Positions 1 to 44,905 of a stretch of 60,252 bases of DNA are shown one piece after another. The stretch is from Planctomycetales bacterium. GTDB taxonomy: Bacteria > Omnitrophota > Gorgyraeia > Gygaellales > Profunditerraquicolaceae. A program made the translations under genes and the position numbers. Each line of letters starts with the position of its first letter. Positions within the stretch are counted from its first letter, which is position 1. The notes beneath the pieces are model-generated. The model saw nothing but the letters and a program-made list of their open reading frames with translations. It was not told the origin of the DNA and searched no databases. The stretch spans positions 1 through 60,252 of the forward strand of contig SBBM01000023.1 in assembly GCA_005239725.1 (NCBI GenBank), given 5' to 3'.

Positions 1-76
1 GCTGAGAAAGCTTTAAAGGATTGCGAAAGATTCCTTGAATATACCAAAACAAAACTGCCAAAATAATAAGGATTAT

Positions 77-1513
77 ATGAATTGCGCAATTTACACTAGA
101 GTCTCTACCGACAATCAAGCCGAAGTAGAATTCAACTCTTGTCAGGCCCAAGAAGAAAAAATAAAATCATTTATAAATAGCCAAGAAAACCTTTTGGTCT
201 TTAAGGTATATAGTGACGCGGGGTTTAGCGGCGCAAACTTAGAAAGGCCTGCCCCCCAGGAAATGCCAAGAGATGTGCAGGAAAACAAGATCGATACAAT
301 TATCGTCTATAAGATAGACCGGCTCACGCGCTTGCCAAAAGATTTTTATGCTTTAATGGATATTTTTGAACAATATAAGGTAGATTTTCTTTCCATAACG
401 GAAAGATTTGATACCTCTACCCCATCTGGCCGCTTACTTCGTAACATTATGCTTACTTTTGCCCAGTTTGAGCGGGAGCTTATCAACGAAAGAACTAAAG
501 ACAAGCTTTTAGAGCGGGCGCAAAAAGGTATGTGGAACGGTGGCGGCATTCCTTTTGGTTATAAGGTTGTTGATAAACGATTAGTGCCGGATGAGCAAAA
601 AGCGCAAAAATTAACTGAAATTTTTGCGCTTTTTTCCGAAACCGGCTCATTAGCTAAAACATACCGCATCTTAAAAACCAAGAAAGTTTTTAATGATAAA
701 GGGCAACCTTTTAGCAAAACTCATCTACAACATGTACTAAGAAATATTACCTATGCCGCCGGAAAACTTAGATACGCCGGCAAAATTTATCAAGGCTTGC
801 ATCAACCGCTTATCTTGGATGATCTGTTTAATTATGTCCAGACGTTATTCCATGAGAAACAGCAAAAGCGATCAGTATACAAAAATCGCCTTCTTGCCGG
901 ATTAGTCCGATGCGCTGAATGCGATTCAATAATGACACCGACGCATACAAACAAAAAACCTAGGCAGCAGTACCATTACTACAGATGCACAAAAACATAC
1001 AGGCAAGATTGGAATGTTTGCGCTACACAACAGGTTAGCGCTGATAGGCTGGAACAACTGATAATAGAGAATCTCAAAAGAGTTTCTTTAGATAACAATT
1101 ATATTGATAGTTTGATTTTCAAGCTTAATTTTGATGGCTTGCGTGCTCACCAGGGACTCGAACCATCGGCATCATGCTCTCCCATTGACCCAAAAACAGT
1201 CCAGCAGAGCCTTAAAAACTTGGTAGAATACTTAGAAAAGGCAACTAAAATTGACCGGGCTTTAGCCCTTAAAAAATACATTAAAAATATTATTTACTCA
1301 AAAGAAACCATCCAAATAAATATGCTTTGTCCTTCAATAGGTTGCGTTGGACAAAGCATTAAAAATCCCGACCCCCTTTTAAATAGAGCGGTTTGCGGCC
1401 GGGCGGCAGCGGCCGCAAACCACGAAAAATTTCCGTGCTCCCAAACAAAAATGGCTACTCCTAGCAGTAGCCATTCGTTAAACTTGGCTGCCCCGCATGG
1501 ACTCGAACCATGA
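77..1513 (+). CDS. Large serine recombinase (resolvase-type catalytic domain plus recombinase/zinc-ribbon region). The last ~60 codons look like read-through into a hairpin and tRNA-Gln.
   Basis: ORF 35..1513 (TTG). Motifs AIYTRVSTDNQ (catalytic Ser), DRLTR, FAQFERELI, GGIPFGYK, CAECDS...YYRC zinc ribbon, typical C-terminal IKNIIYSKETIQI. AAGGA lies 5 nt before ATG 77. The TGA stop lies inside tRNA-Gln. Confidence 0.85.
   Translation: MNCAIYTRVSTDNQAEVEFNSCQAQEEKIKSFINSQENLLVFKVYSDAGFSGANLERPAPQEMPRDVQENKIDTIIVYKIDRLTRLPKDFYALMDIFEQYKVDFLSITERFDTSTPSGRLLRNIMLTFAQFERELINERTKDKLLERAQKGMWNGGGIPFGYKVVDKRLVPDEQKAQKLTEIFALFSETGSLAKTYRILKTKKVFNDKGQPFSKTHLQHVLRNITYAAGKLRYAGKIYQGLHQPLILDDLFNYVQTLFHEKQQKRSVYKNRLLAGLVRCAECDSIMTPTHTNKKPRQQYHYYRCTKTYRQDWNVCATQQVSADRLEQLIIENLKRVSLDNNYIDSLIFKLNFDGLRAHQGLEPSASCSPIDPKTVQQSLKNLVEYLEKATKIDRALALKKYIKNIIYSKETIQINMLCPSIGCVGQSIKNPDPLLNRAVCGRAAAAANHEKFPCSQTKMATPSSSHSLNLAAPHGLEP
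1322..1359. repeat. Perfect 11-bp inverted repeat ATGCTTTGTCC-N16-GGACAAAGCAT, located where recombinase-like coding signal ends
   Basis: Read directly. Could be a recombinase binding or att-like site, or just a hairpin. Confidence 0.4.
1391..1420 (-). terminator. GC-rich hairpin (GTTTGCGGCC / GGCCGCAAAC) about 65 nt downstream of the tRNA-Gln 3' end
   Basis: 10-11 bp perfect stem with 8-nt loop, followed on the minus strand by CGCTCTATTT. It lies inside the recombinase ORF extension. Confidence 0.4.
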
Positions 1514-3690: not shown

Positions 3691-4415
3691 TTAATTCTCC
3701 TCAGCGGGAATTCTTTCGTCATTGTATCCCTTATCCAGGACATCGCCTTTTCAGAGGACATCTCCCAATAGGTCGGGCAGGGAGATAGAATCTCAACCAA
3801 AGAAAAGCCTATATTATCAATCTGGTTCTGGAATGCCTGTTTTATCGCCCTCTTTGATTTCAATATTTCTTGAGGGTTATGCAAAGATACCCGCTCAACA
3901 TATTTTACAGCCGGTAATGTTCCTAATAAAAGGGAGATATTTAAAGGGTACCCCTGGAAGCGGACATCTCTGCCTTTAGGTGTCGTGGCTGTCTTTTGCC
4001 CAAGAAGGGTAGTAGGCGCCATTTGCCCTCCGGTCATCCCGTAAATCGCATTGTTAATAAATATCGCAGTGATGTTTTCCCCGCGATTAGCCGCATGTAT
4101 GGTTTCATTTGTGCCGATAGCCGCCAAATCCCCGTCTCCCTGGTATGTAAACACGATATTATCCGGCCTTACCCTTTTTATAGCCGTTCCCACAGCCAGG
4201 GCGCGGCCATGCGCTGCTTCAGTGCAGTCAAAATTCCAGTAATCATAGGCGACTACCGCGCAGCCAACCGGAGCAACCGCGATGACTTTTTCCCTGATAT
4301 TTAATTCGTCTATTACTTCGGCGATTAAGCGATGGGCTAGGCCATGCCCGCATCCGGCGCAGTAATGCGTAGTTACATTCTTTAAAGATTCCGGACGGCT
4401 AAATATTTTTTTCAT
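3687..4415 (-). CDS. 2-oxoacid:ferredoxin oxidoreductase, beta (TPP-binding) subunit
   Basis: YCAGCGHG, GDGDLAAIGTNE TPP motif. Overlaps its neighbours by 4 and 17 nt. Confidence 0.85.
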   Translation of the reverse strand: MKKIFSRPESLKNVTTHYCAGCGHGLAHRLIAEVIDELNIREKVIAVAPVGCAVVAYDYWNFDCTEAAHGRALAVGTAIKRVRPDNIVFTYQGDGDLAAIGTNETIHAANRGENITAIFINNAIYGMTGGQMAPTTLLGQKTATTPKGRDVRFQGYPLNISLLLGTLPAVKYVERVSLHNPQEILKSKRAIKQAFQNQIDNIGFSLVEILSPCPTYWEMSSEKAMSWIRDTMTKEFPLRRIK

Positions 4416-5478
4416 TGATTTTCCTTATTATCTCTTCTCCCGTCGGAATTCCGCCTCCGCTGTGGCCGATAAATTCGACCTTTGCCTTACCGCAGCAGCT
4501 CAAGCGGACATCGTCCACCATCTGCCCATAAGACATTTCCACAACTAAAAATCTTTTGCGCTGGTCGGCTTTTCCGGTGAACCGGTGAAAAACTTTTTTA
4601 GGAAACGGCCATAAACTTATGGGGCGTACCAGGCCTATTTTTTTGCCCTTTTCCCTTAAATTATCAACTACGTCACGGCAAACCCGGGCCATTGTCCCAT
4701 AAGCAACCAGAATAATTTCAGCATCATCTAAAAATGATTCCTCCCAACGTTGCTCGTTTTCTTCAATTTCTTTATATTTTTTCTGCAACTTGAGATTAAA
4801 CTCTTCCAATGCCCCCTCTTTCATGTAAAAAGATTTTATTACGTTCGGCTTTCTGCCTTTACACCCTGTCAGCGCCCATGGTTTTTTGTAATTTTGGATT
4901 TTAGATTCTGGGTTACGGACTTTTTTGAGGGGCTCCATCATCTGGCCTAAAGTTCCGTCGCCCAGGACAATCACGGGATTACGATACTTGTCCGCCAAGT
5001 TAAAAGCCAAAAACATAAGGTTGTATGCTTCTTCCACAGAAGAGGGGGCAAGGACAATAGAATGATAATCTCCGTGCCCTCCTCCGCGGGTAGCCTGGAA
5101 ATAATCCGACTGGGCAGGGGCAATGTTGCCTAAACCTGGTCCGCCGCGCATCATATTTACAATAACTGCCGGCAGCTCTGCCCCGGCGATATAAGAAATC
5201 CCTTCCTGTTTGAGGCTCATGCCCGGGCTGGAAGATGATGTCATTGCCCTTTTCCCTGCGGCTGAGGCGCCAAAGACCATATTAATTGCCGCTAATTCCG
5301 ACTCCGCCTGAATAAATACCCGGTTTAATTGCCCGCTTCGGGCAGGCATATGTTTCGCCATATAGGCAATCAATTCATTCTGCGGGGTAATGGGGTAAGC
5401 GGCATAAAATTGGCATCCTGCCTGTATTGCTCCTTCTGCAACCGCCTCATTGCCGGTCATCAAGATTCGTCTGTTCAT
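4399..5478 (-). CDS. 2-oxoacid:ferredoxin oxidoreductase, alpha subunit
   Basis: 359 aa. MTGNEAVAEGAIQAGC..YPITPQNE N-terminus is typical of Kor/Por/Vor alpha subunits. Confidence 0.85.
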   Translation of the reverse strand: MNRRILMTGNEAVAEGAIQAGCQFYAAYPITPQNELIAYMAKHMPARSGQLNRVFIQAESELAAINMVFGASAAGKRAMTSSSSPGMSLKQEGISYIAGAELPAVIVNMMRGGPGLGNIAPAQSDYFQATRGGGHGDYHSIVLAPSSVEEAYNLMFLAFNLADKYRNPVIVLGDGTLGQMMEPLKKVRNPESKIQNYKKPWALTGCKGRKPNVIKSFYMKEGALEEFNLKLQKKYKEIEENEQRWEESFLDDAEIILVAYGTMARVCRDVVDNLREKGKKIGLVRPISLWPFPKKVFHRFTGKADQRKRFLVVEMSYGQMVDDVRLSCCGKAKVEFIGHSGGGIPTGEEIIRKINEKNI

Positions 5479-5486: not shown

Positions 5487-5562
5487 AGCGGATAGCGGAT
5501 AGCGGATAGCGGATAGAAAAAATTTGAACCTTCTATACGCTCTACGCTAAACGCTACACGCT
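5487..5562. repeat. Heptamer-periodic palindrome: (AGCGGAT)x4, 14-nt spacer, inverted imperfect (AGCGNNN)x4
   Basis: Four perfect tandem AGCGGAT units at 5487-5514. The partner arm at 5531-5562 reads AGCGTGT AGCGTTT AGCGTAG AGCGTAT on the other strand. It fills the delta-alpha intergenic gap. Confidence 0.9.
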
Positions 5563-5563
5563 A

Positions 5564-5767
5564 TTATTTATACACCTCAATACAGCAGTCCGGGCAGATG
5601 ACCGCGCACATGGCGCACCCCAGACAATTGCCGCCCTTTTTAAACTCTACAAAAGTTATTCCCCGCTTATTCATCTTTGTGCCTGCCTTTATCGCGCCCT
5701 TCGGGCAAACACTAACACACAATAAACATCCCTTGCATTTTTCTTTGTCAATCGTTATCCTTGGCAT
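5564..5767 (-). CDS. 2-oxoacid:ferredoxin oxidoreductase, delta subunit (2x[4Fe-4S] ferredoxin)
   Basis: CKGCLLCVSVCP and CLGCAMCAVICP cluster motifs. 67 aa. Confidence 0.8.
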   Translation of the reverse strand: MPRITIDKEKCKGCLLCVSVCPKGAIKAGTKMNKRGITFVEFKKGGNCLGCAMCAVICPDCCIEVYK

Positions 5768-7932: not shown

Positions 7933-9189
7933 TTAACTGGCGTCTTCATTTACCTCCCTGACAGAACTGAGAAAAGAACCTTTGGCCAATATTGTTTTTA
8001 CCGAATCGCCGGGTTTTAATTTGTCTGCCTCTCTGATAATTGCCCCGTCGGGCATAAGCATAGTCAGGCTGTAGCCGCGCGATAATATGGAAAGGGGGCT
8101 TAGGGTCTCTAATTTTTCAATTAAGGATTTGAACTTTTCTTTTAACATATTCAAGAAATGCGCTGCATTTGAATTTAATGCGTTAACCAGCTCATCAAGC
8201 AGCTGCTGCTTTTCCAATAGCCGGTCTAAGGGGCTCTTGAGCATATGCCTTAAAGCCACAAGGCCATGGCGCAGATCAGCAATAAACGTTGAAAGTGAAG
8301 AGTTTAACCTGTATTTATAAGTGTCTATCTGAGCAAGCAGCGCGTTTTTCTTATCCACGATAACCTTGGCTGCGGCTGACGGTGTTTCCACAAATACATC
8401 CGCCACAAGGTCGGAAAGCGTAACGTTTATCTGATGGCCAACGGCAGAAATCGTAGGTATTCTGGAATTATATACTGCCCTGGCAACGGCCTCTTCATTA
8501 AATGACCAGAGGTCTTCGAGGCTACCCCCTCCGCGGCAGATTATGATTACATCCACTTCCTTTCCCGCAAAATGCGGGATCCCGCCCTCACCTTCATTCG
8601 CTTGGCGGGAATATTTATTAAAGTCTTCGATTGCCTCGGCTATCTCCCGCCAGGCGCCCTCGCCTTGCACCCTTACCGAGCGTATCAGGACATCTACGCA
8701 AGGGGCGCCTTTCTTAAGTATCTGCAATATATCCCTCACTGCCGCGCCGGCGCTAGAGGTAACAATGCCAAGCCGAAACGGCATAAGGGGAAGCGGTTTT
8801 TTATGTTCAGGGGCAAACAGGCCCTCTTTAAGCAACCTGGCCTTTAACTGCTCAAAAGCCAACTGCTGCGCGCCCACCCCTTCAGGCTCAATCTTTTCTA
8901 CGATTAACTGGTATTGCCCGCGCGGAGAGTAGACTTCAATCCTGCCGAAGCATATTACCTTAAGCCCGTCTTCAATCTTAAATTTAACTTCGCGATTGGC
9001 GCGGATAAACATCGCCGCTGCCAGGACCGAAGCTTCATCTTTTATGGTAAAATAAAAGTGGCCGGATGTAGCTACTTTAAAATTAGAGACCTCCCCCTCA
9101 ACCCAGACCTCTCTGAATGTGTTCTCTAAAACTACTTTTATATCGCGGGTAATCTCGGATACCGTATAGATGTGCCTGGTTTCTACCAT
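7933..9189 (-). CDS. xseA: Exodeoxyribonuclease VII large subunit, carrying an in-frame palindromic-element insertion
   Basis: OB-fold N-terminus VWVEGEVSNFK, GIVTSSAGAAVRDI, RGGGSLEDLWSFNEE. Confidence 0.9.
   Translation of the reverse strand: MVETRHIYTVSEITRDIKVVLENTFREVWVEGEVSNFKVATSGHFYFTIKDEASVLAAAMFIRANREVKFKIEDGLKVICFGRIEVYSPRGQYQLIVEKIEPEGVGAQQLAFEQLKARLLKEGLFAPEHKKPLPLMPFRLGIVTSSAGAAVRDILQILKKGAPCVDVLIRSVRVQGEGAWREIAEAIEDFNKYSRQANEGEGGIPHFAGKEVDVIIICRGGGSLEDLWSFNEEAVARAVYNSRIPTISAVGHQINVTLSDLVADVFVETPSAAAKVIVDKKNALLAQIDTYKYRLNSSLSTFIADLRHGLVALRHMLKSPLDRLLEKQQLLDELVNALNSNAAHFLNMLKEKFKSLIEKLETLSPLSILSRGYSLTMLMPDGAIIREADKLKPGDSVKTILAKGSFLSSVREVNEDAS
8563..8610 (+). repeat. Double-hairpin palindromic element, 48 nt, inside the xseA coding sequence
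   Basis: TCCCGCA-AAA-TGCGGGA | TCCCGCC-N17-GGCGGGA. Contains GCGGGATCCCGC at 8574-8585. Confidence 0.85.
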
Positions 9190-9195: not shown

Positions 9196-11001
9196 TTAAT
9201 TTGCACTTGAGCCGGCAGGCTCTTGCGGTGCTTCCTTTTTCGCAGCCGGCTCTGCCTGTGCTTGTTTCGGCTGTTCCGCAGGCGCAACAACTTCAGGCGA
9301 CGGCTCGGGTTTAATCTTTAGAATAATCAAGCTCACCGAATATGGCTCTAGTGTTAAGGCTTCCTGATAAATACCGGCGGGAGTTATCTCTTTTTCTTCC
9401 AGGGGGTTAAATTCGCAATTGGCGCTGCAGAGCGAACTTACAACATACCTTTCATATAGATAATTTTCTTTTAAATTTTTAAAGTTTAGTTTTATATTCC
9501 GGCTGGATTCCCTGAATTTTGCGGCCTTGTCATTTAAATCCAGCGCCTTCTTTAATAACTCCTTTACTTTTCTGCTTAAAGGCAGCCTTGCGATATCCAC
9601 TTCCCGGCGGATAATCTTATCCAGTTTTTCAGACTTGATAATGCCAAGCAAGGGCCTCCTTTCTTTTTCCGCCAATAGGGCGATTTCCGCAGAAAGGGAA
9701 TTCATAAAAATTCCCGGGTCAATGTAATTATAAATCAATACGGCAAGGCCGTCGCCCGTCTTCGTGGCAATCCCCCCGCAGAATTCATCGTTAAGTTTAA
9801 CCTGATACATATCATTTCCTAACCTTTTTAACATCCGGAGGACATGGTACGTTGCCTTCGCCCCCCCCTTATACCCCTTGGGGTCCTGGTCAAACCAGAA
9901 TATGCCGGTATTCCTTGCTACCCCTTCTTTATTTTCTTTGAAATCCTCCAGTGAAAAAAAGAGCTGATAATCAATGTCTGCGTCGTGCATATTCTTAAGG
10001 CGGGCAGGGATGTAACTTGCCGAGATAAAAGACTTCTCCTGCCTTTCCGGCAGAAGATTGGCGCCGCTATCATAATTCCATTCGTCTATTACCAGAGGGA
10101 TATTACTGTCGAAGTTAAAGTAAGCAAGCCATTCCCTGATAAGCCCGACTGCCGTCTTATTATATGCGGTAACCTCTTTTTCCGGTTTTGCGCCGGTTGA
10201 ATAGGCATGCCAGGTAATAAAATCCAGGGGGAGGTTTTTTTCCGAGCAGAATTTGATTAATTCGTAGATGAGGCTTTTTTCTGGCTCAACTACATTATTG
10301 CCGTCAAAGCCCTGAAACCACCAGCTTACGCTGGGGCCGCCGACGGGAATATCAATTTTAGTCTCCGTTTCCAATTCCCGTGCGCTTTCGGCAACTGCGC
10401 GGTACAAATCCAGATACTCCTGCCTGCCGCCCACAAAAAATTCATCCAGGTCAGGCGCGCTCCATACTTCATACCAGACCTTATATTTTTTATTACAGCT
10501 GAATTCTCTGATATACCCTTTTATTAATTCCTTAAATGCCTTTAAATCCCAGGGCGCGCTCTTTTTATCCAGAACTTTGCCTAACCCCGGAGGCATGCTG
10601 AAAATATCTAAGATAACCGTGCCGCCTGAATCGCTTATATTCCCGATTATCGTCCCGTAATTAGCCAATAACTTATCCTGGGCATCCTTGTCTTTGGCTA
10701 ACTGGCTAATCTCCCAAAGGGTAAACTGCAGCCGGTATATCCCGGAAAAGCCGATATCTTTCCGCCAGGCATCCAGGGCCTCCTTTGCCGCCAATACCTG
10801 CGGCCAGGTGGGGTCGGCATGGAATCCACGGCCGGATAAATCAATATTCGGCTGGAAAATTTTTGGCAAGGGGACGGTGCTTGCCGCAGCGTCAACGGTA
10901 AACTCCAAATCTCCTTCCTGGGCAAAAACAGTAGATAGTAAATAGTAGTTAGTAGATAGGGCTAAAAAAAGCAAAATGCTATAAATTTTTTTCTTGATCA
11001 T
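9196..11001 (-). CDS. Secreted glycoside-hydrolase-like TIM-barrel protein (clan GH-A / GH39-like) with a Pro/Ala/Glu-rich C-terminal tail
   Basis: Signal peptide MIKKKIYSILLFLALS...AQE. WYEVWSAPDL aligns by memory to the GH39 WxEIWNEPN motif. Also IDEWNY. Low-complexity tail PEPSPEVVAPAEQPKQAQAEPAAKKEAPQEP. Confidence 0.5.
   Translation of the reverse strand: MIKKKIYSILLFLALSTNYYLLSTVFAQEGDLEFTVDAAASTVPLPKIFQPNIDLSGRGFHADPTWPQVLAAKEALDAWRKDIGFSGIYRLQFTLWEISQLAKDKDAQDKLLANYGTIIGNISDSGGTVILDIFSMPPGLGKVLDKKSAPWDLKAFKELIKGYIREFSCNKKYKVWYEVWSAPDLDEFFVGGRQEYLDLYRAVAESARELETETKIDIPVGGPSVSWWFQGFDGNNVVEPEKSLIYELIKFCSEKNLPLDFITWHAYSTGAKPEKEVTAYNKTAVGLIREWLAYFNFDSNIPLVIDEWNYDSGANLLPERQEKSFISASYIPARLKNMHDADIDYQLFFSLEDFKENKEGVARNTGIFWFDQDPKGYKGGAKATYHVLRMLKRLGNDMYQVKLNDEFCGGIATKTGDGLAVLIYNYIDPGIFMNSLSAEIALLAEKERRPLLGIIKSEKLDKIIRREVDIARLPLSRKVKELLKKALDLNDKAAKFRESSRNIKLNFKNLKENYLYERYVVSSLCSANCEFNPLEEKEITPAGIYQEALTLEPYSVSLIILKIKPEPSPEVVAPAEQPKQAQAEPAAKKEAPQEPAGSSAN
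10930..10960. repeat. Heptamer tandem array AGTAGAT AGTAAAT AGTAGTT AGTAGAT AGG inside the signal-peptide coding region
   Basis: Read directly. Encodes LSTNYYLLSTV on the minus strand. Confidence 0.8.
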
Positions 11002-15315: not shown

Positions 15316-15567
15316 AAAAAAAATCCCCGCATTGTGCCGTTGGCTTGATGGGGCTGAACCGTTTAGGTTACAGGTGGGTGCCTCCCTTTAACGCCTAAGC
15401 GATAAAGGAGTCTAAGCACCCATTATTTTGGTGTTGGTCCACCAATCATCAATTTCCCAACGTGCACCGCAGGGATATCTTTCCGTCCGCTTATTTCATA
15501 TATCGCGGCATCCCGCCTGCTATTGTATAGCTTGGCGGGAAAAAGAACTTTTCTTTCTCCTCCAGGC
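15316..15567 (-). ncRNA. Candidate structured small RNA or leader (~250 nt) of unknown class
   Basis: Promoter TTGACT-N17-TATACT (15602-15574, minus). Long-range helix 15457-15474 with 15325-15343. Internal hairpin TGGGTGC...GCACCCA at 15375-15422. U8 run at 15316-15323. No plausible ORF. Confidence 0.45.
15483..15544 (-). repeat. Double-hairpin palindromic element copy (intergenic, minus orientation)
   Basis: Minus strand reads TTTTTCCCGCC-AAGCTATACAATAGCA-GGCGGGA TGCCGC-...-GCGGAC. It is nearly identical in its first hairpin to the 44947 copy. Confidence 0.8.
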
Positions 15568-17405: not shown

Positions 17406-19511
17406 CTACCTGAATTTGGCTTGAAATTTATCCGCCAACACGCCGGATATGGAAGAATGAAGCGGGGTTACCTCTGCTTCGGTTAAGGTACGTTCGCAAG
17501 AACGATAAAGGCAGGATATGGTTAAGCCTTTAAATCCGGCAGGGATTTGTTTACCTTTATAAGAATCTATGATTTTAGTCTCGGCAAGTAAATCTCCCGC
17601 GCCTTCCTTTATTACTTGCAGTATTTTTCCCACCGGAACATCATCTTTAAGTATAAGGCTTAAATCCCTGGAGATGCCGGGATATAACGGCAGGGATTTA
17701 AATTCCCGCTTTAAGCTTATAGAGCCGGACAACTTTTCCAGGGAAACCTCGGCAACAAAGGCATCCCTGTTTTTTATTTCAAGGTTATCCAAAACATCCC
17801 TTTTCAGCTTGTGGAGCGCGCCTATCTTTTCTTTGCCTAAAGCCACTTCTATCTTATAAGCATCGGGCGTAAGATTAAAATTGTAATCTCTGATGCCCAG
17901 CCTGTCGAAAATAACTTGTAAAATTCCTTTTAGATGCAGAAAGCCTGCTCCATCCTTTACCTGCCCTTGCTCAAACCAGAGGCTTCTTACGCCGCATAAA
18001 GCAATGCCCAGGATTAACTCCTCTTTTGGCATGCCGTTCTCTTTGGAAAAACCTTTGGCGATTTCAAATATATTAATGTATTCCTGTTTTTGGTTAAGAT
18101 TAACAGCCAGACATTTACCCAGGCTGGGGATAAGAGTCGGCCGTAAAATCTCTTGTTCCCTGCTTAAAGGATTTAAAATTTCCGCGCTCTCGGCATAATC
18201 TTGGCCAAAACCTTTTAACAAGCCCCTGTCAATAAGACTGTAAGTAATTACCTCGTTTAGGCCCAACCCTGTAAGAATATTTTTGATGAGCCCAACCTGC
18301 TCTCTTAACCCCGGCCTGTTTATCCCCGGGGTAATCACGGGCAGGGTGTTGGGTATATTTTCATAGCCGTATATGCGGGCTATTTCTTCAACCAGGTCAA
18401 CCCCGGTTTTTACGTCCGGACGGAAAGATGGCACCTTAACATTTAAAATATTTTTTCCTTTTGATTCAACCTTAAAATCCAAGTTGCTTAATATAGATTT
18501 TATTTTGGCCGCGGCGATATTTATGCCTAAATTTTTATGGACGAATTCCGCATCCAGGGCGATTATTGTTTTCTTTTTCGCGAGACTTCCGGAATCTTTA
18601 ACTAAAACTAATTCTCCTCCGGCTAATTCCCGGATTAGCTCTGCCGCGCGGGAGGAAGCCTTTTCAACCAATTCAATATCCACTCCCCTTTCAAATCTAT
18701 AGGAAGATTCGCTCTCTACCCCCAGCATTCTTCTCCCCCGGCGGATGAGCACAGGGTCAAATACCGCCGCCTCAAGGAGCATATTTACCGTTCCTCCGGC
18801 AACTTCGCTGTCTTTTCCGCCCATAACCCCTGCGACAGCCACAGGTTTTTCTCTGTTCGCAATAACTAAAATTTCGGGGTTAAGCGCTTTTTCCCGCCCG
18901 TCAATAATCGTTATCTTCTCGCCTTTCTTTGCCCGGCGGATAATTATTCTATCGCTGTTTAATTTATCCAAATCAAAGGCGTGTAGAGGCTCCCCCAGCT
19001 CAAACAAAACGTAATTGGTAATATCGACAATGTTATTTACACTGCGGCAGTCTAATAATTCCAGCCTTTTTTTAAGCCACTCCGGCGAAGGTCCGACTTT
19101 TACCCCTTTGATTATTTTAGCGGTGTACAAGGGGCAGTCTTTTTTATCTTGAACATTTATTGTTAATGTTTTAGCGTTTAGCGGGTAGCGTTTTCCCGCA
19201 ATGCTATCTCTTAGCTTGCGGGATCCCGCTCTACGGGAAGCGTATAGGATTTTGTTTCTACTATCCGCTATACGCTCTACGCTATGCGCTCGAATTTTTG
19301 CCTTTGTTATTGCCGCTACTTCCCTGGCGACCCCGGCCACGCTCAGCCAGTCCGGACGGTTAGATGTAATTTCGATCTCAAAAATAAAGTCTCCACCGCG
19401 CCCTTCCAGAGATGTAACTTCCAGGCCAGCCATGGTAAGCTTATCGGCAAGTTGTGCCGGCGGAATCCTAATATCTACGAAGTCTTTTAGCCAGTTATAT
19501 GTAATTTTCAT
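17406..19511 (-). CDS. pheT: Phenylalanyl-tRNA synthetase beta subunit. It lacks the N-terminal OB/tRNA-binding domain and carries an in-frame repeat insertion.
   Basis: MKITYNWLKDFV, NRPDWLSVAGVAREVAA, DITNYVLFELGEPLHAFD, SSYRFERGVD, C-terminal FDX-ACB-like end. Confidence 0.9.
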   Translation of the reverse strand: MKITYNWLKDFVDIRIPPAQLADKLTMAGLEVTSLEGRGGDFIFEIEITSNRPDWLSVAGVAREVAAITKAKIRAHSVERIADSRNKILYASRRAGSRKLRDSIAGKRYPLNAKTLTINVQDKKDCPLYTAKIIKGVKVGPSPEWLKKRLELLDCRSVNNIVDITNYVLFELGEPLHAFDLDKLNSDRIIIRRAKKGEKITIIDGREKALNPEILVIANREKPVAVAGVMGGKDSEVAGGTVNMLLEAAVFDPVLIRRGRRMLGVESESSYRFERGVDIELVEKASSRAAELIRELAGGELVLVKDSGSLAKKKTIIALDAEFVHKNLGINIAAAKIKSILSNLDFKVESKGKNILNVKVPSFRPDVKTGVDLVEEIARIYGYENIPNTLPVITPGINRPGLREQVGLIKNILTGLGLNEVITYSLIDRGLLKGFGQDYAESAEILNPLSREQEILRPTLIPSLGKCLAVNLNQKQEYINIFEIAKGFSKENGMPKEELILGIALCGVRSLWFEQGQVKDGAGFLHLKGILQVIFDRLGIRDYNFNLTPDAYKIEVALGKEKIGALHKLKRDVLDNLEIKNRDAFVAEVSLEKLSGSISLKREFKSLPLYPGISRDLSLILKDDVPVGKILQVIKEGAGDLLAETKIIDSYKGKQIPAGFKGLTISCLYRSCERTLTEAEVTPLHSSISGVLADKFQAKFR
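19172..19290 (+). repeat. Composite element: heptamer arm (TAGCGNN x3), double-hairpin core, inverted heptamer arm. Entirely inside the pheT coding sequence.
   Basis: Left arm at 19172-19192. Core TCCCGCA-N16-TGCGGGA TCCCG-CTCTA-CGGGA at 19194-19238. AGCGTATAGG. Right arm ATCCGCT ATACGCT CTACGCT ATGCGCT at 19263-19290. Confidence 0.85.
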
Positions 19512-20059
19512 CCTTGGGTTACTTTCTTAAACTCTTTGACTAAATTACTCGCCGCGATATCCGAAAATTCCTTAAGCCATTTTTTTATATACGCCGTATC
19601 CAATGCCTTTTTATTCTTTTCCCACAAAACCCTTACATCCTCTAAATCGCGCGGGCGACCAGCGAACATTTTATGGATAACCGTATCCTCGCAAGAAGCA
19701 AAATTAACATTATAATTATTTAATTTTACTTTCCTGGCTCTTTTTAATGCTTGTTTTTCGTAAGGCGTAAACGAAAAGATAAAATCAACCCGTATGCCTG
19801 TTTCTTTATCCACCCCTACCAAAACATTGGTCTTTCTTACAAAGCTATCGTTGGCATTTTTAGGGATTACCAAGCCCGCTCCCTCCAGAACGCTCTTCAT
19901 CTTATCTAATTTATCAATATCTACGCCCAGGGTGATATCTATATCTTCTGTCAGCCGAACCAAGCCATATAAAAGAACAGCCTGACCTCCAATGAGCATA
20001 TAAGGAATTTTATTTTTATCCAAACGCTTGGCGATATTTGCAATTAACTTTTGAATCAT
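19508..20059 (-). CDS. Minimal nucleotidyltransferase (Pol-beta superfamily; DUF2204/DUF6036/AbiEii-like, exact family not resolvable by eye)
   Basis: YMLIGGQAVLLYGLVRLTEDIDITL (G[GS]-x9-13-DxD), IRVDFIF (third acidic residue), GRPRDLEDVRVL. ATGA overlap with the pheT start. Confidence 0.7.
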   Translation of the reverse strand: MIQKLIANIAKRLDKNKIPYMLIGGQAVLLYGLVRLTEDIDITLGVDIDKLDKMKSVLEGAGLVIPKNANDSFVRKTNVLVGVDKETGIRVDFIFSFTPYEKQALKRARKVKLNNYNVNFASCEDTVIHKMFAGRPRDLEDVRVLWEKNKKALDTAYIKKWLKEFSDIAASNLVKEFKKVTQG

Positions 20060-20259: not shown

Positions 20260-20260
20260 C

Positions 20261-21277
20261 TCAAAATTGTTTTAAAAACCGTAAATCGCTTTCCGCGAAA
20301 AGCCTGATATCATTAATCCCGTATTTGAGCATGGCAATTCTTTCTACGCCCATGCCAAAGGCAAATCCGGTATAAATTTTCGGGTCATACCCGACATGCT
20401 TAAAGACATTGGGGTGGATCATCCCGGAACCTAAAATTTCAAGCCAGCCTTTTCTTCCGCAAACCGAACAACCCTTACCTTTACAAATTATGCAGGAGAT
20501 ATCCACCTCTGCCGAGGGCTCGGTAAAAGGGAAGAAGTGCGGCCGAAAACGCATCTTGATATCTTCTCCGAAAACAGATTTGGCAAAGACTTCCAGGATA
20601 CCTTTTAAATCCGAAAATTTTATATTTTTATCCACCATAAATCCTTCTATCTGATGAAACATAAAGGAGTGGCTGGCATCCACGGCATCCGGGCGATAAA
20701 CCCTGCCAGGCACAACTATTGCCAGGGGCGGCTTGCGCGATTTCATTGCCCGGATTTGCACCGGCGAGGTGTGACTGCGTAAAAGTAGCTTCTTTTTTGT
20801 TTTTAGATAAAAGGTATCAAAGGCATCCCGCGAAGGATGCTCCAGCGGGATATTTAATCCGGTAAAATTATTTTCTTCGCTTTCGATTTCCGGACCCTCT
20901 ACAACAGAAAATCCCATGCCGGTAAAAATAGAGCAGATTTCATCAATGAGCTGAGTTAAGGGGTGTAGCCGCCCTAAATCCTGGGCAATGCCGGGCATAG
21001 TGATATCTACCTGTCCGGCTGTGGGCGCGCCTACGTCAATGGAAGCAAAGGATTTTTGTTTCTCGTTAAGAAGGGTGTTGATTTTATTTTTAAGAAGATT
21101 GACCTTTTGCCCAAAGGCGCCCCGCTCTTCTTTGGGGAGCTGAGGGATGGAGCCGGTTAATTCGGCAAGGACACCCTTCCTGCCTAAATAGCGCACCCGC
21201 AATTCCTCTAATTTATCCGAAGAATCTATGCCGGATATTTCGTTTTCTATTGTTTGATTAATCGCGTCAATATCCAT
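20261..21277 (-). CDS. pheS: Phenylalanyl-tRNA synthetase alpha subunit
   Basis: HPSRDAFDTFY, FRPHFFPFTEPSAEVD, GFAFGMGVERIAMLKYGI. Confidence 0.95.
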   Translation of the reverse strand: MDIDAINQTIENEISGIDSSDKLEELRVRYLGRKGVLAELTGSIPQLPKEERGAFGQKVNLLKNKINTLLNEKQKSFASIDVGAPTAGQVDITMPGIAQDLGRLHPLTQLIDEICSIFTGMGFSVVEGPEIESEENNFTGLNIPLEHPSRDAFDTFYLKTKKKLLLRSHTSPVQIRAMKSRKPPLAIVVPGRVYRPDAVDASHSFMFHQIEGFMVDKNIKFSDLKGILEVFAKSVFGEDIKMRFRPHFFPFTEPSAEVDISCIICKGKGCSVCGRKGWLEILGSGMIHPNVFKHVGYDPKIYTGFAFGMGVERIAMLKYGINDIRLFAESDLRFLKQF

Positions 21278-32318: not shown

Positions 32319-33106
32319 TATGCTTCTCCTTCCAGTATAGATTGGGTTTCCAGTCCGAGAATTTCTTTACACAATTCTTCGTATTTTTGCGCTCCCAAAG
32401 AATCTTTATCATATAAAGCCACAGGCTTGCCAAAACTTGGAGCTTCAGTAAGCCTTATATTCCTGGGGATTACCGTGTTGTATACCTTATCCTTGAAATA
32501 ATTCCTCGCCTCCTGGATAACCTCTTTGGTAAGGTTAGTGCGGAAATCCGCCATAGTTAAAAGAACCCCCTCAATAAAAATACTGGGATTCAGGTTATCT
32601 TTTACAAGTTTAACTGTATTAGTAAGTTGTGTTAATCCTTCCAGGGCATAATACTCGCATTGGACAGGAATAAGCACAGAGTCCGCAGCGCAAAGCCCAT
32701 TTATGGTTAATAAACCCAGAGAAGGCGGTGAGTCAACTAATATAAAATCAAAGTTATCCCGTTCTTTTGCCAACGCCCTTTTTAAGCGGTACTCTCTACC
32801 TAATGCGCCAACTAACTCTACTTCGGCCCCGGTTAAATCAAGATTCGAAGGGGCCAACCAAAGATTCGCAATTGCTGTTGTCTGTAATATTTCTTTTATT
32901 TCTAATTCTTCGAGAAGGACATGATAGGTGCTTTTTTGGATGTTGTGCTTATTTATGCCCATTCCGCTTGTAGCGTTTGCCTGGGGGTCCAAATCTACGA
33001 GCATGATTTTCTTGCCCAATAAAGCAAAAAAGGCGGCTATATTTATGGCGGAAGTGGTTTTACCGGTGCCGCCTTTTTGATTGCAAATTGTAATAATTTT
33101 ACCCAT
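32318..33106 (-). CDS. parA: Chromosome partitioning ATPase ParA/Soj
   Basis: ICNQKGGTGKTTSAINIA deviant Walker A, VDLDPQANAT, ILVDSPPSLG. Confidence 0.95.
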   Translation of the reverse strand: MGKIITICNQKGGTGKTTSAINIAAFFALLGKKIMLVDLDPQANATSGMGINKHNIQKSTYHVLLEELEIKEILQTTAIANLWLAPSNLDLTGAEVELVGALGREYRLKRALAKERDNFDFILVDSPPSLGLLTINGLCAADSVLIPVQCEYYALEGLTQLTNTVKLVKDNLNPSIFIEGVLLTMADFRTNLTKEVIQEARNYFKDKVYNTVIPRNIRLTEAPSFGKPVALYDKDSLGAQKYEELCKEILGLETQSILEGEA

Positions 33107-33555
33107 TATTTCTTACGCAGCTTAAAAGCTCGACTCTTTGAATTTAAACTTGATAACTTCTGTGCTAACACATGAAGTTTGTCATAATCTATATCTCTGA
33201 AGTTTTCTAATTTATGCATCACCATTTCTTTCCATACTTGGTATGCTTCTTGTTTCTTTTTACTTTGCAGGGGGAATTTATCAAAATGTCCAACTATTTG
33301 CATTAACTCACTAGTTCTTGTTACTCTATAATATACCGTGGGTTGCGTAAAACCACTGTTATGGGTAGACCTGGCTTCATTAGCATTATATATATATCCT
33401 ACATAATTAAAGTATTTATGAATGTCTTCGATTACTTGAGCGTTATCTACCCTTTGACGAATTGCAAAGTATAATCCATATGTTCCTCCACTTCTACTAT
33501 AAGTAAAAGCTGCTTCTCCGTCACAGAAACCAGTTACATACCAAGGATTTAGCAT
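33106..33555 (-). CDS. Free-standing single-domain LAGLIDADG homing-endonuclease-like protein
   Basis: WYVTGFCDGEAAFTY (LAGLIDADG motif). ~149 aa. Locally AT-rich. Its TAATG overlaps the parA start. Confidence 0.75.
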   Translation of the reverse strand: MLNPWYVTGFCDGEAAFTYSRSGGTYGLYFAIRQRVDNAQVIEDIHKYFNYVGYIYNANEARSTHNSGFTQPTVYYRVTRTSELMQIVGHFDKFPLQSKKKQEAYQVWKEMVMHKLENFRDIDYDKLHVLAQKLSSLNSKSRAFKLRKK

Positions 33556-33610
33556 CACTTACCCTTGTTAGGAAAATGTTTTAATTTGCACATTTTCACG
33601 GGGAACATTG

Positions 33611-37523: not shown

Positions 37524-38661
37524 TGTTAACTTAAAATGAAAATATTGATAACCACCTATCTGGTAATATAGCCTTGAATCCCACTACTTCAGCAGGTGAC
37601 TGAAGCCCAAGCGATGAATGCGGCCTGAAGTAGTTGTAGTATATAAAATAAATTGTCAAAAAGCAACAAGTAGAATAAAAGGACTTAAAGCCTCTTGCTC
37701 TTTTATAACGTGCCTTTAAGGTACCAAAGAAGCGTTCAATACGGTTATTGGATAATTTATCAGCGAACTTGTCAACCAGAATGAATTTCTTTGCAAGTTT
37801 TGGCTTGATTGTTTTCTTTAGTTCCTGATAAATGCCGTGCCGGTCAGAGACAAGCCGGTTAGGCTTAAAACCTGCGCGTTTAATTGCTAGGTTGATAACC
37901 TTTATTGCCGCATCAGTGGAACGCGTCTTTGATAAATACCAGGCAATAACAAAACGGCTCTTACGGTCTAGGACCGCGAATATCCAGTGTTTCTTGCCGG
38001 ATATTTTGATAACCGTTTCATCAATATGCCAGGTCTTAGACAGCTGTAATTTAACGTCCTCGACGTGTTGGCCAAAAAGAGCGGCGAATTTCTTGCACCA
38101 CTGATACACGGTAACATTGGATACCTTAATGCCGAATTCAAAATAGAAGTTCTTTGATATATCCCTGGAAGATAAGCCAAATTCATAACAGAGCCTGATT
38201 GCCTTAAGGATAATCTCTTTGGAATAACGCATCCTTTGGAAATTGGTCTTGCCAAAGGATAGCTTAGAGATATAATCCAGGACTTCTTCCGGGATTGTGT
38301 AGACATTAAATTTATAGTTGCAGCTTTTACAGCGTAATCTTTTAAAGTGCTTTCGCCATTTGTAGATATCAAGCCCTTTAGCACATTTAGGGCACTTAGG
38401 CAGCCAGGGATGTTTAATTTGCTCTTTGCCATAACCATCACCGATTCTGAATTGGCGTTTGCATTTTAAGCACTGATATTTTTGTTTACCGGTTACCGGA
38501 TCTTTACCGAATTTATACAGTTCTTTTGAGTTGCACCTGGGACATTTTAACATGGCTAAAGCCTCCTCTCTGGTAGCCCTCTTTAGGGGAGGGCGGGTTA
38601 ATTTTCTCTAAGCTATTTTACCAGAAGAGGTTTTAGCCAGTATAATCATATTAAGTTAACA
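37524..38661 (-). mobile_element. IS6-family-like insertion sequence (single zinc-finger + DDE transposase) between dnaA and dnaN
   Basis: Terminal inverted repeats TGTTAACTTAAAATG (37524-37538) and CATATTAAGTTAACA (38647-38661) match 14/15. No obvious target duplication, so exact ends are tentative. Confidence 0.6.
37531..38553 (-). CDS. IS6-like DDE transposase with N-terminal zinc fingers
   Basis: CPRCNS..GKQKYQCLKCKRQF and CPKC..CKSC fingers. WHIDETVIKISGKKHW (D), LVSDRHGIY (D), SNNRIERFFGTLKAR (E). Confidence 0.8.
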   Translation of the reverse strand: MLKCPRCNSKELYKFGKDPVTGKQKYQCLKCKRQFRIGDGYGKEQIKHPWLPKCPKCAKGLDIYKWRKHFKRLRCKSCNYKFNVYTIPEEVLDYISKLSFGKTNFQRMRYSKEIILKAIRLCYEFGLSSRDISKNFYFEFGIKVSNVTVYQWCKKFAALFGQHVEDVKLQLSKTWHIDETVIKISGKKHWIFAVLDRKSRFVIAWYLSKTRSTDAAIKVINLAIKRAGFKPNRLVSDRHGIYQELKKTIKPKLAKKFILVDKFADKLSNNRIERFFGTLKARYKRARGFKSFYSTCCFLTIYFIYYNYFRPHSSLGLQSPAEVVGFKAILPDRWLSIFSF

Positions 38662-39784: not shown

Positions 39785-42474
<2,690 letters not shown>

Positions 42475-42475: not shown

Positions 42476-44905
42476 ATGTACACCAGAAACGAAAAGATAA
42501 TTCCGGTTTATATTGAAGAGGAAGTAAAGGACGCCTATTTAAATTACGCCATGAGCGTAATTGTCGGCCGCGCGCTTCCCGATGTGCGCGACGGATTAAA
42601 GCCGGTGCACCGCAGGATTCTTTACGCCATGCACGAACTCAACCTGGAGCACAATAAGCCTTATAAAAAATGCGCGCGTATCGTAGGCGAGACGCTTGGG
42701 AAATTCCACCCGCACGGAGACATGGCGGTTTACGATACCCTGGTAAGGATGGCCCAGGATTTTTCTTTGCGCTATGCCCTTGTAGACGGACAGGGCAACT
42801 TTGGTTCAGTCGACGGGGATGCCGCAGCAGCTATGCGTTATACTGAAGCCCGGCTAGCCGAAATCGCGGGAGCCATGCTCCAGGATATTGAAAAGGAAAC
42901 AGTTGATTTTGGGCCGAACTTTGACGCCTCGTTAAAAGAACCGCTTTTATTGCCTGCGGTTTTACCCAACCTCTTAGTTAACGGCTCAAGCGGTATTGCC
43001 GTAGGCATGGCTACCAATATCCCGCCGCACAATTTAAATGAGATAGCCGATGCTATAATTTACCTTTTAGACCATCCTGAGGCCGAAGCCAAAGACCTGA
43101 TGCGTTATGTAAAGGGCCCGGATTTCCCGACCGGAGGAGTTATCTGCGGCAAGGCAGGAATTAAAGACGCTTATGCTACCGGCAGGGGTAAGCTTACCGT
43201 GCGGGGAAAGGCAACGATTGAGCACCAGAAAAACGGCAAGGACCTGATTGTTGTAACTGAAATTCCCTACCAGGTGCAGAAGGCTGGCCTCATAGAGGCA
43301 ATCGCGGATTTGGTGGATGAGAAAAAGATAGAGGGGATTTCCGATATCCGCGACGAGTCCGATAAAGACGGCATGCGTATTGTCGTTGAGCTTAAACGCG
43401 ATAGCGAGCCGCAGATTATTTTAAACCAGCTTTTTAAACATACGCAGCTTGAGACTACCTTCGGGATTATCATGCTTGCCCTGGTAGAAAACCGGCCCCG
43501 GGTTTTGAATTTACGCCAGATGCTCGACTGCTATGTTAACCACCGTAAAACCGTTATCCGCAGGCGCACGCAGTTTGAGTTAGATAGGGCTTTAAAGAGG
43601 GCGCATATTTTAGAGGGTTTAAAAATTGCCCTGAAATTTATTGACCGCATTATCAAGTTTATCAAGACCTCTAAAAATGTTGAAGCGGCTAAAGCAGGGA
43701 TGATGAAGGAGTTCGAGCTCTCTGAAATTCAGTCGCAGGCAATATTAGAGATGCAGTTGCAGCGCCTGACCGCGCTTGAGCGCGATAAGATTGACGCCGA
43801 ATACGCAGAACTCCTCAAGAAAATCGAACTCTGCAAGGCTATACTCGCCTGCGAGAAAAAGGTGGGGGGAATTATCAAAGAGGAACTGGAAGAATTAAAG
43901 AAAAAATACGGCGATGAGCGCAGGACCGATGTTGTCGGCGAAGTGGAAGAATTGGAAGTGGAGGATTTAATCGCCGAGGAAGACGTGGTAGTTACTATCA
44001 GCCACGGCGGATACATTAAGCGTCTCCCGGTCTCCGCCTACCGTAAACAGAGGCGCGGCGGCAGAGGGGTTACAGGCGCGGAAGTAAAGGAAGAGGATTT
44101 TATTGAGCACCTTTTTGTGGCCTCCACAAAGGATTATCTTTTGGTATTTACCGATAAGGGCCAGGCGTATTGGATTAAGGTCTATGAAATCCCCCAGGCA
44201 AGTCGTATTTCAAAAGGCAAGGCAATCGTGAACCTGCTGCAATTAAAGCCAGAAGAGAAAATCAGTTCAACTATCCCGGTAAGGGAGTTCTCCCCGGATA
44301 AATACCTGGTAATGGTAACAAAAACCGGGCAGATTAAAAAGACTAAGCTGGATGCCTACTCAAACCCGCGCAAAGGGGGGATTATCGGTATTACCCTGGA
44401 TAAAGACGATGAGCTCATCGGAGTTGAACTTACCGAAGGGAAACAAGAATTGCTCATCGGCACAAAGCAGGGTAAGGCCATACGTTTCCCCGAGTCTCAA
44501 GTACGCGACATGGGAAGAGGCGCGCGCGGGGTGAGGGGTATTTCATTAGCCAAGAAAGACGCGGTAATTGCCATGGTTATCGCCCGGAAAGAAGCTACCA
44601 TTTTAACGGTTACCGAATTAGGTTTTGCCAAGCGCACCCCGTTTAAAGAATACCGCTTGACCCGCAGGGGCGGCAAGGGTATTATTAACATAAGGGTAAC
44701 GGATAAAAACGGCGACGCAGTCAGCTTAAAAACCGTTAATGATAAAGATGAGTTAATGGTTATTACGGAAAACGGTATGTTCTTGCGTTGCGCTATAAAA
44801 GATATACGCACAACCGGCCGCTCGGCCCAGGGGGTACGTTTAATAAAGCTCCAGGACAAGGACCGCGTTTCCTGCGTTGCCCCGGTAATTACGGAAGAAG
44901 AATAA
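42476..44905 (+). CDS. gyrA: DNA gyrase subunit A
   Basis: [35 protein letters not shown] (catalytic Tyr), C-terminal beta-pinwheel repeats. Confidence 0.97.

Follow-up and report, generated by a model that had tools for sequence, protein, structure and literature searches.

A hairpin cassette built of heptamers, with a double hairpin nested inside it, lies in frame in the PheT linker of an Omnitrophota bacterium

The pheT Locus and Its In-Frame Repeat Block

The DNA analyzed here (the window) is a stretch of 60,252 nucleotides (nt), contig SBBM01000023.1 of assembly GCA_005239725.1, deposited as a Planctomycetales bacterium and placed by GTDB within the Omnitrophota. Its minus strand carries pheT (17406..19511), an essential gene encoding the beta subunit of phenylalanyl-tRNA synthetase, as an intact open reading frame (ORF) of 701 amino acids (aa). 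The protein contains the Pfam domains B3_4, B5, tRNA_synthFbeta, and FDX-ACB and no B2, the tRNA-binding domain that is missing in this lineage, and its best-named relatives are PheT proteins of Candidatus Omnitrophota. Within pheT lies a repeat block of 118 nt (19173..19290, minus strand), composed of a 73-nt heptamer hairpin cassette and a nested 45-nt element. The block codes for approximately residues 75-113, in the linker between the B1 and B3/4 domains, with the peptide RAHSVERIADSRNKILYASRRAGSRKLRDSIAGKRYPLNA. An initial annotation had described the segment at 19172-19290 as two inverted 7-nt-periodic arms around a double-hairpin core, in frame in pheT and expanding the linker before the B3/4 domain, and the sequence, the location, and the encoded peptide are as it reported.

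Read along the plus strand, the block opens with the heptamers AGCGTTT AGCGGGT AGCGTTT (19173-19193), continues with hairpin H1, TCCCGCAATGCTATCTCTTAGCTTGCGGGA (19194-19223), and hairpin H2, TCCCGCTCTACGGGA (19224-19238), resumes with AGCGTAT AG (19239-19247), and, after a 13-nt spacer (19248-19260), closes with CTATCCG CTATACG CTCTACG CTATGCG CT (19261-19290). On the coding (minus) strand, the upstream arm (19261..19290) is therefore AGCGCAT AGCGTAG AGCGTAT AGCGGAT AG, or four AGCGNNT units plus AG over 30 nt, and is followed by the A-rich spacer TAGAAACAAAATC (19248..19260), which forms the loop of the heptamer hairpin. The downstream arm is in two parts, CTATACG CT (19239..19247) and AAACG CTACCCG CTAAACG CT (19173..19193), severed from each other by the nested double hairpin (19194..19238, plus strand), whose 15 codons lie between two heptamer units after AGCGTTT and add the 15-aa segment SRRAGSRKLRDSIAG. 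The 9 nt at 19239-19247 are 100% complementary to 19268-19276, and the spacers found at the corresponding place in relatives are A-rich and 4-7 nt long. Stretches of the predicted PheT peptide that span the block read ..ILYASRRAGSRK.. and ..SIAGKRYPLNAK... The second unit of the upstream arm is the variant AGCGTAG, which takes away a TAG that would otherwise stand in the pheT frame; a regular heptamer array containing TAG would place TAG in every frame within three units.

The initial annotation proposed that the segment could fold as a single hairpin, and it can, although the structure is branched: the minus-strand RNA of 19160-19300 folds at -50.9 kcal/mol, compared with -28.2 +/- 3.0 for shuffled sequences (z = -7.6; none of 200 shuffles equaled it). 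The 45-nt core alone folds into two adjacent hairpins (-25.4 kcal/mol, z = -6.1), and the block from which the core has been removed still folds (-29.0 kcal/mol, z = -5.5), as does the corresponding hairpin of a relative, locus L163 (-31.9 kcal/mol, z = -5.6). No Rfam family was found in the block at either the gathering or a permissive threshold, where the matches were at chance level (E > 0.1). An AlphaFold model of PheT built from a 20-sequence alignment proved unusable, with a mean predicted local distance difference test score (pLDDT) of 51.8 and residues 75-116 of the linker below 50; it is uninformative on the loop because half of PheT also falls below 50.

Linker length, taken from the NRPD[WC] motif to the CPxY motif, was compared across 105 PheT loci from many bacterial phyla. 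The window linker measures 74 aa and the modal length is 49 aa (60 of the 105 loci), an excess of 25 aa that agrees with the original estimate of about 20 residues relative to Escherichia coli. A relative with a shorter linker was found, and it is the closest relative found (P0002, locus L161): its PheT is 87% identical in amino acids and 88% in nucleotides outside the linker, and its linker is of baseline length, Lys-rich, and without the repeat, with flanks that align to those of the window nearly base for base. Linker peptide conserved across distant taxa in the absence of the nucleotide repeat was not seen, as ..YSVER..RYPLNAK.. in distant PheTs always comes with the repeat structure.

Two Repeat Families, One Nested in the Other

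The block was first annotated as one composite repeat. It is instead made of two independent repeat families, an AGCGNNT heptamer hairpin and an inserted TCCCGC double hairpin, since arms without a core (in L163 and at window positions 5487-5564) and cores without arms both exist. AGCG-type heptamer hairpins without the TCCCGC core occupy the corresponding pheT site in L163, L165, L083, and L085, while the core occurs without heptamer arms elsewhere in the window at 8563-8610, 15511-15540, 44947-45009, and 59990-60050. Two relatives provide an empty site: P0003 and P0026 read ..ILYA|KRYP.. exactly at the insertion point of the 15-aa segment. When 19194-19238 is deleted, the window arm again consists of four regular units, CTATACG CTAAACG CTACCCG CTAAACG CT; the downstream arm of L163 is CTATACG CTAAACG CTATCCG CTAAACG CT, and the reconstructed arm differs from that of L163, and likewise from that of L162, at a single position in 30.

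Similarity between these cassettes extends to the upstream arm, which in L163 (P0026, whose PheT is 60% identical) reads AGCGTAT AGCGTAG AGCGCAT AGCGGGT AG and is followed by the spacer TAAAAAA. The window upstream arm matches that of L163 at 27 of 30 positions and that of L162 at 28 of 30, so that both arms together match at 56 and 57 of 60 positions, respectively; the rest of pheT is 63-64% identical, falling to 43-45% at third codon positions. The differences between the arms of relatives fall at heptamer positions 5-6 and not at codon or synonymous positions.

A sister of the heptamer hairpin lies between genes at 5487..5564 (no strand assigned), reading (AGCGGAT)x4 AG, a 16-nt A/T-rich spacer, and CTATACG CTCTACG CTAAACG CTACACG CT, and stopping 9 nt before the start codon, ATG, of a gene for a pyruvate:ferredoxin oxidoreductase subunit (4399..5478, minus strand). 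This sister lacks the TCCCGC core, folds at -33.6 kcal/mol (z = -6.4), and is identical to the pheT copy at 51 of 60 arm positions. AGCG-type arms are thus 93-95% alike between orthologous pheT sites of distant genomes, compared with 85% between the two copies of the window.

Arrays with nested insertions also occur elsewhere. An arm of the L162 array contains a 21-nt palindrome, CTGCCTAGCCGGCAGGCAGGC, the L082 array contains a double hairpin, and the L008 linker contains several hairpins. The palindrome of the L162 PheT-linker hairpin, which encodes CLAGRQA there, recurs in the last codons of the window's parB (31459-31480, ..KACLPAGREV*), as the 20-nt CCTGCCTGCCGGCAGGCAGG, and in the linker of L099-L101 (SLPAGRQE). 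These copies look like members of a third family of tiny, possibly mobile, palindromes.

Copies and Insertion Sites of the Double Hairpin

The pattern AGCGNNTAGCG matches the window 9 times (0.40 expected), and TCCCGC-N(5-30)-GCGGGA matches 8 times (0.12 expected). One of the latter matches, at 20826-20850 in pheS, was rejected as a family member, as it consists of conserved E-H-P-S-R-D codons that recur in L097, and the window PheS is of normal length. The 60 kb contain at least five double- or single-hairpin copies and two AGCG-type heptamer hairpins, with fold z-scores from -4 to -7.6. H1 is 30 nt and H2 is 15-33 nt long. The H1 consensus, TCCCGCCAAGCTAT-NNN-ATAGCWGGCGGGA, is common to four window copies and L082, and the H1-H2 junction is a palindrome, GCGGGATCCCGC, with four occurrences in the window and none in the remaining 2.3 Mb of fetched loci. 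The double hairpin is bounded by terminal TCCCGCC/GGCGGGA inverted repeats.

The xseA copy (8563..8610, minus strand) that the initial annotation pointed out is real, and forms an exact 48-nt, 16-aa in-frame insertion between TAT and AAG of xseA (7933..9189, minus strand). Of 11 relatives, 8 have no counterpart of its peptide, SRQANEGEGGIPHFAG, L122 (68% identical) among them. The first hairpin, by its similarity to the other copies, places the element on the opposite strand relative to its gene from the pheT copy. The double hairpin is thus translated on one strand in pheT and on the other in xseA, and noncoding DNA contains it too, in line with the earlier proposal that a nucleotide element, and not a peptide, is what is repeated.

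The remaining copies lie outside protein-coding sequence. A single H1-type hairpin, TCCCGCCAAGCTATACAATAGCAGGCGGGA (15511..15540, minus strand), is located between genes, just upstream of the 6S RNA gene, and its region is 84% complementary over 49 nt to the copy at 44934. A full-length double hairpin of 63 nt (44947..45009, plus strand; -41.1 kcal/mol) sits in a truncated copy of tRNA-Glu(UUC) (44909-45020), where it breaks the anticodon loop exactly between TTTT and CAAG by comparison with the intact gene (45268-45342), 359 nt downstream. We considered whether 44909 marks a functional intron-bearing tRNA, which is ruled out, as the copy has no T-arm and received no ARAGORN call. A further double hairpin of 61 nt (59990..60050, minus strand) interrupts the T-loop of a tRNA 3' fragment (59982-60067, consisting of ACCGGTTC, the element, and AAATCTGGTTGGGGCTA) that directly follows the intact tRNA-Glu(CUC) gene (59903-59977). 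Of the two tRNA-Glu fragments beside intact genes, the first comprises the 5' half with the anticodon arm and the second the 3' T-arm with the acceptor end. The double hairpin may have killed duplicate tRNA genes, or it may prefer the hairpin loops of tRNA genes.

In three comparisons of filled and empty sites (tRNA-Glu, xseA, and the pheT arm), no target duplication was found, and the ends of the element coincided with the feet of the hairpins. The 5' flanks, on the strand that runs from H1 to H2, are TTTT, TTTTT, GTTT, ATTT, ATAT, and, in L082, CTTT; five of the six end in TTT, in a small sample. Both coding copies have a shortened H2 and a length divisible by three (45 and 48 nt), whereas the noncoding copies measure 61-63 nt. 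Related double hairpins are present in other Omnitrophota, in L082 (inside an AACTTTG heptamer array, after TTT) and in L019, and the PheT linker of L008, longer by 50 aa, includes a TCCCGCC hairpin as one of several. Viral contigs scanned with the H1 consensus gave no matches. A reading of the TCCCGCC hairpins as intrinsic terminators was ruled out by eye, as a T-run precedes and an A-run follows the hairpin on both strands.

The PheT Linker as a Hot Spot of Cassette Turnover

Among short tandem repeats in the Omnitrophota loci, period 7 dominates, accounting for 103 of approximately 160 arrays with at least three copies, and the heptamer arrays typically form inverted pairs. The linkers of 76 B2-less PheT loci contain 37 period-7 arrays in 6.6 kb (5.6 per kb), while the rest of the loci contain 121 arrays in 1.09 Mb (0.11 per kb). 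This approximately 50-fold higher density in the linker corresponds to a Poisson P of about 1e-49, for loci that are not fully independent. Linker arrays are found in only 24 of the 76 B2-less loci, compared with 3 of 48 B2-containing PheTs. The units vary by lineage and include GTCCACA/TATGGAC, GTATCAC/ACGTGCG, CAAAGTT, GGACGAA, and others.

On a neighbor-joining tree of 60 PheTs, with the linker masked, the cassette types are distributed patchily, with the AGCG type on at least seven separate branches. A clade of PheT proteins that are 88-95% identical contains at least five cassette types. L165-L169 share 90-96% DNA identity in the 3' 1.8 kb of pheT, yet carry unrelated cassettes in one slot, each following the same plan of about four units, an A-rich spacer of 4-7 nt, and about four more units; four of the five form a periodic hairpin fold (z -4 to -5). 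Other linker arrays do not pair, with z about 0 (L084, L012, L098, L082, and L166).

Heptamer cassettes also occupy other sites. The spacer between RNase Y and YmdB is another cassette slot, and orthologous slots in close strains hold different unit families. An exact unit is common to distinct sites in 13% of within-genome pairs compared with 0.6% of pairs between genomes, a difference of approximately 22-fold. Shared units within a genome include AAGTCAC in pheT and a GH39 gene (L167), AGCGTGC in pheS and pheT (L169), and AGCGNNT at the two window sites. Directly after the conserved motif HPSRDxFDTFY, PheS has a second in-frame hot spot, with cassettes at 9398-9472 of L167, 493-567 of L168, and 9256-9308 of L169 that add 18-20 aa and whose unit families differ in close strains; L166 has a nearly collapsed cassette in pheS (approximately 860-874), and the window pheS (20261..21277) has none. 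In the window, AGTAGAT x4.3 (10930-10959) lies in the N-terminal, signal-peptide-like codons of a GH39-like ORF (9196..11001), for which the orthologous position in L167 carries AAGTCAC x9, and AGTAACT x4.7 (51685-51718) lies between genes. A perfect tandem array of a 17-nt unit, AGTTAGGAAGTTAGGGG x4.5 (53431-53507), covers the end of an ORF (53000..53461) and the spacer before the next (53510..54748), and its AGTTAGG unit also forms a heptamer array in L081. At other PheT loops, further in-frame insertions are seen (P0008, P0041, P0014, P0030, and P0010), with peptides such as ..SPVRNTKPSRQKLKISNG.., ..MEPIRAKAQD..RPRS.., and ..MVQESIKHFPIPL.., which suggests that insertion of repeats into surface loops of aminoacyl-tRNA synthetases is common in the clade.

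A scan of viral contigs for AGCGNNT x4 gave 61 loci, mostly unrelated high-GC arrays, many of the high-GC arrays having inverted partners; heptamer-array hairpins are therefore not limited to Omnitrophota. This shows a wide spread of such arrays and not shared ancestry with the window array. An IMG/VR contig with 42% GC (L181) has perfect AGCGTAT arrays at 1017-1046 and 1956-1997, directly upstream of two genes and with no inverted partners, and could be a phage of a related host that has the AGCGTAT unit in common.

Origin of the Block and Alternative Explanations

We consider it probable that the block consists of selfish or neutral repeats, one nested in another, that are tolerated in a permissive linker of the protein; selection for an RNA or DNA structure acting in cis, or active replacement of cassettes, is less probable. 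In the history that we favor, the first two steps are shown by the sequences. The B1-B3/4 linker of Omnitrophota PheT is a slot often occupied by a heptamer hairpin cassette of "4+4" plan, in which about four tandem 7-nt units and about four inverted units flank a short A-rich spacer; the window cassette is of the AGCGNNT type. Later, an unrelated element, the 45-nt double hairpin whose stems are TCCCGC(C)...(G)GCGGGA, entered one arm at a unit boundary after TTT, without making a target duplication. Because pheT is essential, only versions that keep the frame and are free of in-frame stops would survive, which the shortened H2 of the coding copies and the AGCGTAG unit would fit. The block would then simply be translated, so that a linker at the protein surface gains 25 residues, most of them basic or polar. 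Most tentatively, the double hairpin may move as folded single-stranded DNA in the manner of repetitive extragenic palindromic (REP) or IS200/IS605 elements, served by an enzyme encoded elsewhere, while slippage, fold-back copying, and non-allelic gene conversion among arrays may generate the heptamer cassettes and drive their turnover, and the cassettes may persist in the linker because its length, and not its sequence, is constrained.

Several observations weigh against this interpretation. First, filled and empty sites are what suggest that either family is mobile, and translation of the block as part of PheT is predicted from the ORF. Second, a Pfam scan of 30 window ORFs detected a serine recombinase, a DDE transposase, and a LAGLIDADG ORF, and no Y1_Tnp/RAYT (REP-associated tyrosine transposase) or other obvious mobilizing enzyme. 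Third, the approximately 50-fold enrichment in the linker is stronger than mere tolerance predicts, because the linker density is still several-fold above a rough intergenic density. Fourth, the greater likeness of arms across distant pheT sites is not easily explained by repeated independent insertion. Finally, the constant 4+4 plan and the hairpin potential kept across unrelated units, taken with the enrichment, could reflect a selected structure. The strength of the hot spot, the constancy of the plan, and the likeness of distant orthologous cassettes are accordingly not fully explained by nested repetitive DNA.

These features would be accommodated differently if Omnitrophota, and perhaps other members of the Planctomycetes-Verrucomicrobia-Chlamydiae (PVC) group, had fixed slots, including the pheT and pheS loops, that hold interchangeable 4+4 cassettes and have them replaced between strains more than 90% identical. 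We regard this as a tentative alternative, distinctly less probable than the history given above, in which hairpin architecture and reading frame would be kept through each replacement. If true, it would imply an active, templated copy-and-replace process, driven by a dedicated enzyme or by hairpin-directed gene conversion and not by passive slippage, and hence a new way to rewrite short protein segments rapidly.

Selection might alternatively maintain the heptamer hairpin as an RNA or DNA structure that acts in cis in the pheST transcript, for example as a processing or stability site, a ribosome pause for folding or assembly of B1, or a target bound by a factor recognizing helices of 7-nt period, with the nested 45-nt element incidental and the sequence free to vary while the 4+4 architecture is kept. 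The linker enrichment, the recurrence of one slot, one layout, and an A-rich spacer in unrelated cassettes of which most fold significantly, and the near-identity of arms between lineages despite synonymous saturation of their pheT all argue for such a role. However, neither the closest relative nor about two thirds of the B2-less PheT loci have the structure, some linker arrays do not pair at all, like cassettes occur in the PheS loop, signal-peptide regions, and intergenic DNA, and one window arm is split by the 45-nt insertion. The lack of an Rfam match adds to these objections, and the variable NN positions are mostly mismatched, with no covariation that keeps pairing among six AGCG-type sequences compared by eye. 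We therefore think a selected structure unlikely.

It is less likely still that the extra peptide itself is adaptive, either as a basic, flexible linker that aids tRNA-Phe binding in B2-less PheT or as a loop under diversifying selection. Linker peptides are rich in Lys and Arg, arrays are commoner in B2-less than in B2-containing PheTs, and the extreme variability between close strains could be a mark of diversifying selection. Yet the peptides of different cassettes are unrelated, such DNA is also found untranslated and on the opposite strand, substitutions track heptamer positions and not codon positions, and repeat-free baseline linkers of Omnitrophota are already Lys-rich; the AlphaFold model is too poor to inform on the loop.

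Pure in-place slippage in a linker free of constraint, in which the arrays neither disperse nor move and resemblances are due to coincidence or mutational bias, we judge marginally more improbable than an adaptive peptide. Heptameric simple sequence repeats are over-represented in many bacteria and are attributed to polymerase slippage in one account (PMC4692102, citing Mrazek 2007), period 7 is dominant among short tandem repeats in these loci, and arrays of the AGCGNNT form occur in many unrelated contigs. Slippage does not, however, produce an inverted partner array, nor would it lead one to expect the approximately 22-fold excess of exact unit sharing within genomes, or the recurrence of cassette, spacer position, and unit order in PheTs only 60% identical when an 87% identical strain has no cassette. 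Although the window is a contig from a metagenome, where repeats may lead assembly astray, an assembly or sequencing artifact from mis-joining at repeats is very improbable, as the block is shorter than a read pair, the 701-aa ORF stays intact, the architecture recurs in independent JGI, ENA, and NCBI assemblies, and identical cassettes occur in separate samples (L163 and L164; L099 to L101).

Comparison with Known Repeat Systems

Most known instances of repetitive hairpin DNA within intact essential genes come from Rickettsia, and scattered cases involve REP elements. In-frame insertion of Rickettsia palindromic elements (RPEs; Ogata et al., 2000, 2002) into genes is a precedent for the block; these elements are described as approximately 100-150 bp long, each family with a conserved peptide (as presented in PMC10969869). 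Like RPEs, the window elements are dispersed palindromes that lie in frame in unrelated housekeeping genes, would be translated as additional surface segments, and are missing in orthologues. Unlike RPEs, they are 45-63 nt (double hairpin) or approximately 70 nt (heptamer hairpin) long, occur on either strand, have no sequence relation to RPEs, and reside in a free-living candidate phylum, and one of them is built of tandem heptamers. Nor is there a conserved peptide, as translation from opposite strands gives SRRAGSRKLRDSIAG in pheT and SRQANEGEGGIPHFAG in xseA. Given these differences in peptide, size, and sequence, the window elements are analogues and not members of the RPE families.

REP elements have also been reported as in-frame insertions in linkers and loops (PMC6006769). 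The double hairpin resembles REP elements, bacterial interspersed mosaic elements (BIMEs), and REP doublets forming hairpins (REPINs), which are mobilized by RAYT (TnpA_REP), in being an imperfect palindrome of the 21-65-nt kind, present in many copies and often as doublets. As expected for single-strand hairpin elements such as REP and IS200/IS605, it shows no target duplication beside a short specific sequence (PMC6006769). With its T-rich 5' target and its entry into hairpin loops and arms, it behaves like an element of that kind. It nevertheless falls outside the definition of REP, as it has no GT[AG]G foot and its 5' flank is T-rich; its two hairpins have one stem in common, arranged head to tail around the GCGGGATCCCGC palindrome, and no cognate Y1 transposase was found in the 60-kb window. 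Unlike IS608, the element ends at the hairpin feet. It has the terminal inverted repeats of a classical miniature inverted-repeat transposable element (MITE) but not the target-site duplication.

Reports of heptameric repeats in bacteria go back to 1990, and such repeats, to our knowledge, remain unexplained. Cyanobacterial short tandemly repeated repetitive (STRR) sequences, Nostoc GGGGA(C/T)T, and Xanthomonas GGGAATC are described as intergenic, a location given for Xanthomonas, Nostoc, and Calothrix, and heptameric repeats are over-represented in Xanthomonas and Nostoc (PMC4692102). The window cassettes share with them 7-nt units of four to five fixed and about two variable positions, a prevalence of arrays of about four units, presence at many loci, sometimes as inverted pairs that form stem-loops, and variation in length and sequence between close relatives. 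They differ in lying in frame in essential genes (pheT and, in relatives, pheS), in having several unit families per genome, and in the switching of the family in a slot between near-identical strains. Very small mobile repeats of 21-27 nt in Nostocaceae, small dispersed repeats SDR4-6, reportedly insert into other repeats and palindromes, according to work of Elhai et al. in 2008. The nesting of one repeat in another is alike, as shown by the 45-nt element in its heptamer arm, the 21-nt palindrome in the L162 arm, and the double hairpin in the L082 array, while those repeats are cyanobacterial, 21-27 nt long, and unrelated in sequence to the window elements.

In-frame hairpin repeats are thus extended to an uncultured, free-living phylum, with two new element types, hairpins built of heptamers and a double hairpin of 45-63 nt without target duplication. 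For annotation, "odd" low-complexity linkers in Omnitrophota aminoacyl-tRNA synthetases are to be read as repeat insertions and not as sequencing errors. With its many filled, empty, and swapped alleles, the pheT slot offers a compact natural system for studying the origin, spread, and replacement of heptameric repeats.

Other Features of the Window

The gap between pheS and pheT (19508-20265) holds a 66-aa ORF and, downstream of it, an ORF for a DUF6036/AbiEii-like nucleotidyltransferase (19508..20059, minus strand) that overlaps the start of pheT by 4 nt, together resembling a type IV toxin-antitoxin pair. The nucleotidyltransferase module is present in L165 and L166 and missing in L161, L162, and L167, where pheS abuts pheT. 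Directly downstream of pheT, an ORF of 600 aa (15599-17401) has no Pfam match; at this position, relatives L162, L163, and L166-L169 have an MgsA/RarA-type AAA ATPase. The chromosomal origin region, at approximately 31.4-45 kb, contains parB-parA, the LAGLIDADG endonuclease ORF (33106..33558), yidC, dnaA (36038-37390), dnaN, an ORF at 40069..42474, and gyrA (42476..44905), and the GC skew changes sign near 35-36 kb. An ORF for the DDE transposase, of the IS240/rve type (37531..38553, minus strand), lies between dnaA and dnaN. At the contig end (35-1559), the ORF for the large serine recombinase (35..1513) overlaps or abuts a tRNA-Gln gene (1485-1559, minus strand), which may mark the edge of an integrated element.

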